From Longimicrobiales bacterium (GTDB taxonomy: Bacteria; Gemmatimonadota; Gemmatimonadetes; Longimicrobiales; Gaopeijiaceae), in the NCBI GenBank assembly GCA_965248195.1, contig CBDFIQ010000002.1:2496001-2560000 (forward strand): DNA of 64,000 nucleotides. Reading direction: 5' to 3'. Each line of letters opens with the position of its first letter. Position 1 is the stretch's first letter. Shown here piece after piece: positions 59,643-60,018 of the stretch. The notes beneath the pieces are model-generated. The model did no database searches. It was not told the DNA's origin and saw only the letters and a program-made list of their open reading frames with translations. Made by a program: the position numbers and the translations under genes.

Positions 59643-59933
59643 GGGAACATCTCCTCCCGCTTTGATTTTGGGTCCTGGGAGAGGCTTCTCAATTGTAGCA
59701 TAGTGGCCCAACATTCTCCAGATGGAGCTTGGCGCGGGGGCGGGGGCGTCCAATCCATCCCATTCAGCCATTCCCGCTTCCTACCCTTGGCTCCATCGTT
59801 CGTTCGTTTCCGTTTTCTCGTTGAGGATTAGGAAAGCCTAACAATCTCCGCAACCCGACCTTTCAAACTGCTTGAAAACAAGTCCATTTCTGTGTACGTT
59901 TTTCTCGTGGGATTTGCGTTAATGCAAAAACCC

Positions 59934-60018
59934 CACAGCGGTGGACCACCTGGGAGTCGAACCCAGCAGTATGGCTTGATTAGGGGCGCGGCCGGCAAAC
60001 CTGCGTGGCCCCACTGTG
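59934..60018 (-). ncRNA. tRNA-like element (Ala-type acceptor stem and T-arm, no anticodon stem)
   Basis: GGGCCAC / GTGGTCC-A-CC with G3:U70; T-arm CTGGG-TTCGACT-CCCAG. Confidence 0.55.

Follow-up and report, generated by a model that had tools for sequence, protein, structure and literature searches.

A tRNA-shaped element between two operons

A short sequence in the gap between two co-oriented operons of a Longimicrobiales bacterium has the acceptor stem and T-arm of a tRNA, and the question is whether it is a working RNA element, the remnant of a tRNA or tRNA-like gene, or an accident of GC-rich sequence. It lies in the 64,000-nt stretch of contig CBDFIQ010000002.1 that was analysed (the window) and consists of the following parts:

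59943..60011, minus strand: tRNA-like body of 69 nt (acceptor, 38-nt core without anticodon arm, T-arm)
59940..59942, minus strand: discriminator A73 (59942), then CC (59941-59940), followed by G (59939), by direct reading
59995..60004, minus strand: possible mini D-like hairpin GC-AGGTTT-GC, with a 2-bp stem and a 6-nt loop containing GG
59934..60018, minus strand: whole stem-extended element, the extension being CACAGTG (60018-60012) with CGCTGTG (59940-59934)
59926..59933, minus strand: GGGTTTTT run directly 3' of the extended stem, a terminator-like tail
59909..59933, minus strand: second hairpin GGG..TTTGC-ATTAAC-GCAAA.CCC, present in the MFE structures and coexisting with the tRNA-like fold

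The element is tRNA-shaped, carries alanine-type marks and has no anticodon arm. Its acceptor stem, GGGCCAC (60011-60005) with GTGGTCC (59949-59943) on the minus strand, is paired at 7/7 positions, G3 (60009) facing T70 (59945), and the T-arm, CTGGG-TTCGACT-CCCAG (59966-59950), has 5/5 pairs and the canonical 7-nt loop and directly abuts the 3' strand of the acceptor, as in tRNA. The core of 38 nt separates acceptor from T-arm. All of these parts (acceptor stem, G3:U70, A-CC(G), T-arm and 38-nt core) had been listed in a preliminary description and were confirmed on the minus strand, as was, by direct reading, the 7-bp extension CACAGTG/CGCTGTG followed by GGGTTTTT. The extension has 7 pairs including one T-G, with A73 and C74 bulged out, and in a consensus scan TCCACCGCTGTGGG plus GTTTTTGCAT at 59945-59932 scored as terminator-like. 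The same description had taken the core to lack an anticodon stem, which holds, but the core is not wholly arm-less and may form the 2-bp mini D-like hairpin.

The MFE fold of 59895-60025 (-46.7 kcal/mol) retains the acceptor, extension and T-arm. The fold energy is ordinary (z -1.47, with 13/200 shuffles equally stable), and the acceptor pair probabilities are only 0.04-0.25 when the element is folded in a 411-nt context. An alternative pairing of the downstream sequence, described earlier as a terminator/antiterminator-like choice, is present but does not act as such a switch in the predicted folds: when forced, the alternative hairpin gives -43.9 vs -46.7 kcal/mol, a cost of 2.8 kcal/mol, and it overlaps the tRNA-like fold by 3 nt, so that the three lowest pairs of the extension are lost while acceptor and T-arm stay. 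An attenuator or riboswitch-like switch, meaning two exclusive structures of similar energy with a terminator among them, was rejected on these two grounds.

ARAGORN and covariance models had been proposed as checks, and neither reported a tRNA or tmRNA gene at the element. ARAGORN at default settings made one call in the window, tRNA-Ala(tgc) at 22767-22839, and at 80% thresholds gave contrived solutions only. An ARAGORN 'tRNA-Arg(ccg)' with a 34-nt intron was rejected: its acceptor strand is the upstream GCACCAC, a single mismatch and a poor D-arm count against it, and the introns of bacterial tRNAs are group I introns, far longer than 34 nt. Rfam at gathering thresholds found only the tRNA-Ala at 22767 in the window, and at E<=10 in the 96-nt stretch neither tRNA (RF00005) nor tmRNA (RF00023) was reported; skipping-rope (RF02924) and DUF2693-FD (RF02926) were likewise unreported among the 4227 Rfam families searched there. 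By ARAGORN and RF00005, a cloverleaf with D-arm and 5-bp/7-nt anticodon arm is absent from the element; a tRNA-type 7-bp acceptor, directly joined by a 5-bp T stem whose loop fits TTCRANY, is present. Like tRNA-Ala, the element has G3:U70, A73 and the T-arm; unlike tRNA-Ala, it is without an anticodon arm and a full D-arm and is called by neither ARAGORN nor the Rfam tRNA model.

The pattern is rare outside tRNA genes. A strict descriptor (7-bp acceptor with at most one G-U, 5-bp T stem, TTCRANY loop and core of 25-61 nt) gave 48 matches in the 4.86-Mb genome, 47 of them at coordinates of ARAGORN tRNA genes (compared by eye) and one at the element, which is the sole non-tRNA match. The same descriptor gave 1, 0, 0, 0, 0 and 0 matches in six first-order Markov genomes. 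With a relaxed descriptor, 5 further non-tRNA matches appeared in the genome and were taken as background. CCA is encoded at 0/46 descriptor sites; CC at positions 74-75 occurs in the element and in 0/45 of the other sites, which are tRNA genes, and the 3' trailer of the element looks foreign, being unlike those of all host tRNA genes.

A possible processing mark or relic on mobile DNA

The element lies in an insertion that is strain-specific by comparison with a same-genus genome, running from window position 51787 to window-equivalent position 66743. It is bounded at both ends by 100% identical copies of a Mutator-family insertion sequence, which we take to be IS256-like, and a third copy lies at 23349-24724. 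The insertion contains a holin and a GH108 endolysin (53754-55095), unknown genes, a gene pair with an S1 protein, the element, a RelE-like/HTH pair, a DUF6338/PHROG 3630 gene (61232-61942) and an ankyrin-repeat gene, and its GC content goes down to 0.57-0.60. No relatives of the DUF6338 neighbour were found in viral contigs. An integron attC origin was considered and rejected, no repeated cassette-end structure being seen. The features on both sides of the element are:

60205..60902, minus strand: RelE-like toxin and HTH antitoxin operon (toxin 60555-60902, antitoxin 60205-60558)
59665..59720, minus strand: predicted promoters of the S1 operon (TGGAGA-17-TACAAT with TG; TTGAGA-16-CAAAAT), by consensus scan only
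59373..59642, minus strand: small gene of the S1 module, 89 aa, with putative RBS GGGAGGAG 7 nt upstream of the ATG
57536..59338, minus strand: gene for a 600-aa protein (N-terminal helix, helical domain, Alba-like domain and three S1 domains)

The toxin matches Pfam RelE (6.2e-14), the antitoxin matches HTH_3/MqsA-type and NCBIfam NadS models, and a 78-nt direct repeat (78% identity) lies on both sides of the pair. The antitoxin stop codon is 194 nt upstream of the element, and the consensus scan found no sigma-70-like promoter between the two; the sole sigma-70-like promoters that it found on the minus strand are those at 59720-59665, which separate the element from the small gene, for which ATG 59642 is the most likely start. 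Because no promoter of its own was found and the antitoxin stop is only 194 nt away, the element would most likely be part of the RelE/HTH transcript, forming its tail.

The explanation that we put first, tentatively and with less than even confidence, is that the element is a t-element-like processing/termination mark in the 3' tail of this operon. The tail of the transcript would fold into a 12-bp coaxial acceptor/T helix recognised by tRNA-processing enzymes. RNase P would cut before G1 (60011), and on the 3' side either an RNase Z-type enzyme would cut after A73 or transcription would terminate at the GGGUUUUU run. Together, the two events would define where the upstream mRNA ends and insulate it from the S1 operon, which begins about 220 nt further on. 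The released RNA, of about 70-85 nt, would be tRNA-sized and non-decoding, with the alanine marks G3:U70 and A73; any charging, like any present-day benefit, is presumptive. The element retains exactly the features that RNase P and RNase Z recognise, namely 12-bp acceptor/T helix, T-loop and A73-CC.

Elements of this kind are established in plant mitochondria, where t-elements are described, in the relevant parts of Forner et al. (2007; PMC1920247), as tRNA-like folds directing RNase P/Z cleavage at mRNA ends. As given there, t-elements resemble our element in their non-canonical tRNA-like fold, GGTTCRANYCC T-arm motif and acceptor-like stem; they lie beside mRNA ends, are non-decoding, and are taken to be cleaved by RNase P/Z and released as small RNAs. 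They are organellar and their ends have been mapped experimentally (PMC1920247, in those parts), whereas the present element is bacterial, chromosomal and known from its sequence, and no sequence relation is claimed. Its GGTTCGACTCC and acceptor stem are situated between two operons of the same orientation, in a gap that is presumably transcribed.

The best and only meaningful Rfam match of the element at E<=10 (96 nt), reported beside four trivial ones, is mascRNA-menRNA (RF01684; 21.2 bits, E 0.015). The match covers model positions 1-56/56 with acceptor and T-arm aligned, and concerns a minimal tRNA-like processing element found 3'-terminally in longer transcripts, a position that the bacterial element probably shares. 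Its 21.2 bits do not reach the gathering score of 42.5, and the family is one of vertebrate lncRNAs; the match is one of shape, not descent.

Further points in favour of a processing mark are that i) acceptor and T-arm are perfect and abut as in tRNA, with a canonical T-loop, ii) the element is the only non-tRNA descriptor match in 4.86 Mb, as against 1 in 6 simulated genomes, iii) it has A73-CC, with CC at 74-75 in 0/45 other sites, iv) the stem extension and T-run follow at once, v) the promoters found lie downstream of it, and vi) its setting is mobile and phage-derived (holin, endolysin, PHROG 3630 and identical IS copies). In addition, its interior is unrecognisable, yet none of the 12 helix pairs is broken and the T-loop is intact, as it should be if nothing but the region recognised by RNase P/Z counts. 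Several observations argue against it: the fold is no more stable than shuffles, the acceptor pairs are improbable in the 411-nt context, and the 5' leader is paired to the 3' trailer over 7 bp, which is atypical of RNase P substrates.

Searches for relatives of the element also count against a processing mark. It is single-copy in its own genome, and 60 relatives gave one short DNA match, outside the element. Among 400 genomes of the phylum, matches occurred in 14, all of 13-30 nt and in GC-rich, coding-looking sequence, and an exact 25-mer of the 3' half was absent from viral contigs. The only match in the JGI metagenomes to a pattern of 5' motif plus T-loop (L033) was rejected as a relative, being the mini-tmRNA L029 treated below. 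As no homologue was found, there is no covariation and no evidence of selection on the element. At the level of listings and abstracts, the literature on mini or truncated tmRNA, phage tRNA-like domains, and RNase P with prophages contained no paper on a bacterial element of this type.

The toxin-antitoxin cassette also occurs elsewhere without the element, which is thus not a fixed part of the operon. Near-identical copies of 60123-61039 were found in contigs from four other runs, which mainly cover the cassette. One record each of X6 (3111 nt) and X9 (1593 nt) continues with sequence unlike the window, the non-matching part of the X6 record being on the side facing the element, where likeness stops at 60123; such divergence means that the cassette travels without the element. 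Low cover was seen in the 59869-60170 bins for X7, and a 642-nt X5 contig is about 81% like 59439-59727, with no cover over the element; we attach no weight to these two gaps.

Nearly as likely as a processing mark, and possible though on the unlikely side, is that the element is an inert relic: the remnant of a phage or other foreign tRNA or tRNA-like gene, recent enough for its helices to be intact and with no present function. Its single-copy state, the lack of relatives and the 3' trailer unlike any host tRNA gene are consistent with this, as is the patchwork nature of the segment, with its lone lysis cassette, an inserted toxin-antitoxin cassette between the 78-nt repeats, and identical IS copies. 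A relic is made less probable by the pattern of loss, since neutral decay of the D and anticodon arms should also have hit the 12 acceptor/T pairs and the T-loop. Moreover, the 7-bp extension and T-run look designed rather than decayed, and no canonical tRNA could be aligned to the interior.

Also in favour of a relic, aberrant tRNA-like genes are numerous in phage contigs, and GC-AGGTTT-GC is found in some of them. A pattern requiring AGGTTTGC and the T-arm was found at no fewer than 118 viral loci, most without an acceptor next to the motif; in at least 26 loci, representing at least 13 distinct sequences, a perfect acceptor precedes the AGGTTTGC-type motif by 1-6 nt. ARAGORN called no tRNA in 6/6 examined (L124, L144, L149, L168, L180 and L210), and Rfam gave weak or borderline matches only for these six. 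Those of the L144, L168, L180 and L124 type resemble the element in length (65-74 nt), perfect acceptor, GC-AGGUUU-GC directly after it, T-arm GGGTTCGAYTCCC and lack of an ARAGORN call, the likeness in the D-region motif being required by the search pattern; L144 also shares G3:U70 and A73. Unlike the element, the L124 type has, by reading of its sequence, a Gly-like anticodon arm. This comparison suggests that GC-AGGUUU-GC of the element is a reduced D hairpin. The interiors of the look-alikes are not significantly similar to that of the element (p 0.06-0.84), and therefore no homology is claimed.

Chance, tmRNA-like genes and the S1 module

That GC-rich sequence came to fit the top-half pattern of a tRNA by accident is improbable. 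From the simulated genomes the chance rate is about 0.17 per genome and 0.002 per 64-kb window, and several features go beyond the descriptor: GG/CC flanking the T-loop, A73-CC, the 7-bp extension and the T-run. The element also sits in an intergenic gap of mobile DNA. On the other side, 1/6 simulated genomes did give a match, the relaxed descriptor yielded 5 more non-tRNA matches in the genome, the fold energy is unexceptional and no relatives were found. We keep chance at this low level because the rate is small per window, yet not negligible over very many windows, a point that also weighs against a processing mark.

Anticodon-less genes of the tmRNA type raise another alternative. A first pattern, requiring the acceptor and T-loop of the element, gave 5 viral loci. 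One of these, L028, is a genuine phage tRNA-Ala(tgc) that shares its acceptor, GGGCCAC/GTGGTCC, with the element, and L029, identical to L054 and near-identical to the metagenome locus L033, is a 79-nt gene lying between phage tail and head genes; it scores 50.3 bits, above the Rfam tmRNA threshold, with 304 internal positions of the model missing. A second pattern, in which fewer than 40 nt separate a tmRNA D-loop signature from a T-arm signature, gave 72 viral loci, of which 64 have a perfect 7-bp acceptor; these comprise 43 distinct sequences of 64-94 nt, and G3 is opposite U70 in 43/43. TLD-only tmRNA-like genes are thus common in viral contigs. The mycobacteriophage DS6A has been described as 'TLD only', with titration of SmpB considered as a possible function (in the part of PMC4131195 that deals with it), and the molecule has been cited as CDS-less and inhibitory to tmRNA (likewise in PMC11915505).

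DS6A and the viral TLD-only genes (L029/L054 and 42 others) are like the element in having a 7-bp acceptor, G3:U70, A73 and a T-arm but no anticodon arm, in their length of 64-94 nt and in their occurrence in mobile or phage DNA. The element may accordingly be thought of as a TLD-only decoy, alanine-charged or SmpB-binding and interfering with ribosome rescue, as proposed for DS6A, but we consider this quite improbable. The alanine identity marks G3:U70 and A73 are present at the sequence level, and the 5' end GGGCCACGCAGGTTT is identical to L029/L054 at 14/15 positions, the shared acceptor being imposed by the search pattern. Where tmRNA has its signatures, GGnUUCGAC in the D-loop and GGAC ahead of the T-arm, the element has AGGTTTGCC and ATACTG. 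A covariance model, R1, was built from 16 TLD-only sequences; 28 members outside the training set scored 47.4-74.6 bits, 3' gene fragments 30-37 and tRNAs 13-27. The element scored 22.1 bits, within the tRNA range, with its P2 pairs unformed, and ranked 9th in its own genome, behind ordinary tRNAs. Since UUCGAC, GGAC and a P2 helix are missing, it does not belong to the TLD-only tmRNAs, and its resemblance to the tRNA-like domain of tmRNA, which had been noted at the outset, proved generic, the Rfam tmRNA model being silent at E<=10.

The element had also been regarded as a tRNA-mimic RNA or attenuator belonging to the downstream S1 module and acting with its S1 domains. The two are co-oriented, and the distance to the small gene, given earlier as about 290 nt, was measured as 297 nt. 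Residues 356-598 of the 600-aa protein form three S1 domains (Pfam S1, NCBIfam rpsA-like). AlphaFold models of the whole protein and of its N-terminal 351 residues had pLDDT values of 88.7 and 88.8, and residues 242-339 matched Alba-type chains with Z 10.0-8.9 (rmsd 1.5-3.2 over 78-87 residues), followed by the RNase P/MRP proteins Pop6/7 and Rpp20/25 (Z 7.7-6.9); Foldseek returned the same Alba chains at E 0.002-0.06. For the N-domain, Foldseek gave no match at E<=0.001 and the ESM Atlas no usable one. The helical part gave structural matches at background level only, and zincin/YbeY-like matches to residues 44-255 (Z 6-7.4) were rejected as lying within background. The protein had no PADLOC or PHROGs match; from these models, it looks like a membrane-anchored multi-domain RNA binder.

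Its closest homologue, P0003, has 62% identity and was the sole close one by word search, while 721 representative proteins, many of them about 600 aa long, match the N-terminal 351 residues at E<=0.001. The S1 protein was found in 0/313 other genomes of the family and, weakly, in 3/400 genomes of the phylum; tblastn found it in no plasmids or phages, and the single protein or a two-sequence alignment retrieved nothing from the genome, metagenome and viral collections. With the alignment A4, five distant S1 loci were identified (four Bacteroidota and one Nitrospirota), none of them in viral contigs. In 5/5 of these loci a 75-112-aa ORF homologous to the small protein (blastp E 3e-13 to 2e-4) lies directly upstream of the S1 gene, and therefore the two-gene module is real and conserved.

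None of the five distant loci carries a tRNA-like element within 3 kb upstream, a comparison that covers distant homologues of the module. ARAGORN called no genes in the five loci, Rfam reported nothing tRNA-like upstream, and the relaxed descriptor matched once inside a gene and once on the other strand, with no match upstream on the gene strand. The T-loop motif occurred only in a genuine tmRNA gene 2.7 kb downstream (L023) and at one coding-looking site on the other strand (L026). The covarying copies that had been sought upstream of S1-module homologues are thus missing from 5/5 distant ones, and the predicted promoters sit between the element and the small gene. The alternative pairing, in addition, removes 3 bp only. 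The RNA-binding folds of the 600-aa protein, including an Alba-like fold shared with RNase P/MRP proteins, and the co-orientation are consistent with a partnership, but on balance membership in the S1 module is very unlikely.

Just as doubtful is a further reading in which the element is an alanine-chargeable non-decoding mimic, cut from the toxin-antitoxin tail and serving as ligand or decoy for the Alba-like/S1 protein and its small partner. The whole would then be a mobile RNA-sensing device (e.g. for phage defence or translation control); recent acquisition by this module lineage would explain the absence of the element from distant homologues.

Least credible of all is an att scar, i.e. 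the end of a host tRNA or tmRNA gene duplicated and left by integration, which is refuted for the tRNA set of this genome as judged by sequence comparison: against 56 tRNA genes and 1 tmRNA gene, the 28-nt 3' part of the element matched host 3' ends exactly in no case and at best at 20/28 positions, a matching 5' acceptor strand is not expected in a scar, and the scan of island proteins revealed no integrase gene, the island ends being IS copies. The earlier exclusion of the element as att site of the tRNA-Ala at 22767 thus holds, and extends to the other tRNAs and the tmRNA of this genome. The two points in favour of a scar are that the island consists of mobile DNA and that a genuine tmRNA gene is found 2.7 kb from the S1-module locus of Solitalea longa (L023). 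An origin from the genome's own tmRNA by internal deletion was rejected, the two having only a 13-nt T-loop core in common.

Biological meaning of the element and of the comparisons

Cleavage of the element by tRNA-processing enzymes, if it occurs, would make it a case of tRNA-like 'punctuation' between operons on mobile DNA of a bacterial chromosome, a mechanism that is documented for organelles. As it stands, it is one unconserved copy and mainly one more data point, anticodon-less tRNA mimics on phage and mobile DNA being a known kind. Two by-products of the analysis may matter more: the catalogue-sized set of message-less tmRNA-like genes in viral contigs, and the conserved, uncharacterised two-gene module that encodes a predicted membrane-anchored Alba-like/S1 RNA-binding protein.

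Message-less tmRNA-like genes and other phage tRNA-like genes

TLD-only tmRNA-like genes, which lack the message part, form a large set in viral contigs (72 loci, L034–L105). The viral locus L029, identical to L054 of the set, and the metagenome locus L033, nearly the same, are of this kind too. The acceptor is perfect in 64 of the 72, and these 64 loci comprise 43 distinct sequences of 64–94 nt; all 43 carry G3:U70, and many encode CCA. L029, the one TLD-only gene tested with ARAGORN, gave no call and scored 50.3 bits against the Rfam tmRNA model. In the literature consulted (PMC4131195, PMC11915505), DS6A is the only phage named as having a TLD-only tmRNA.

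Other phage tRNA-like genes of 65–74 nt were observed in L124, with about 20 similar viral loci among the matches listed, and in the viral contigs L144, L168, L180 and L210. ARAGORN called none of these five. The L124 type and the other four share a GC-AGGUUU-GC D hairpin, a motif demanded by the search pattern. The L124 type adjoins a Proteo-phage-1 RNA (RF03044, 53.6 bits); judged from its sequence, it resembles a tRNA-Gly(UCC) of aberrant form whose CCA is encoded in the gene.

The tRNA genes of the window's own genome include a dense array of 17 within 2.2 kb (contig C1:1071378-1073597), several tRNA-Met(cat) calls of 72 nt, and a few over-long ARAGORN calls, e.g. a tRNA-Gln of 100 nt at contig C2:179951.

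The S1 two-gene module

The module is conserved between the window and five distant loci (L023–L027).

Window 57536-59642, minus strand: S1 two-gene module
Small protein, ~75–112 aa: first partner of the module
Large protein, ~600 aa: N-terminal helix, helical domain, Alba-like domain and three S1 domains
L023:7510-7773, minus strand: genuine tmRNA gene 2.7 kb downstream at the Solitalea longa module locus

The N-domain family of the large protein comprises 721 representative clusters and has no match in Pfam, PADLOC or PHROGs. Placement of the L023 tmRNA gene would suit island integration at ssrA; a search of the ORFs lying between it and the module found no integrase domain.

Repeated sequences and island borders

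Copies of the RelE-like/HTH cassette (window 60123-61039) that are ~97% identical to it occur in several unrelated runs, on contigs where the surroundings differ from those in the window. In the window the cassette is flanked by a 78-nt direct repeat (60177-60254 and 61165-61242, 78% identity), and the DUF6338 gene has its 3' end within this repeat.

A Mutator-family insertion sequence is present in three mutually identical (100%) copies:

Window 23349-24724: first copy
Window 51788-53163: second copy
L021:1365-2742: copy at the far end of the strain-specific insertion

The latter two lie in direct orientation on either side of a 12-kb strain-specific segment, an arrangement resembling a composite transposon.
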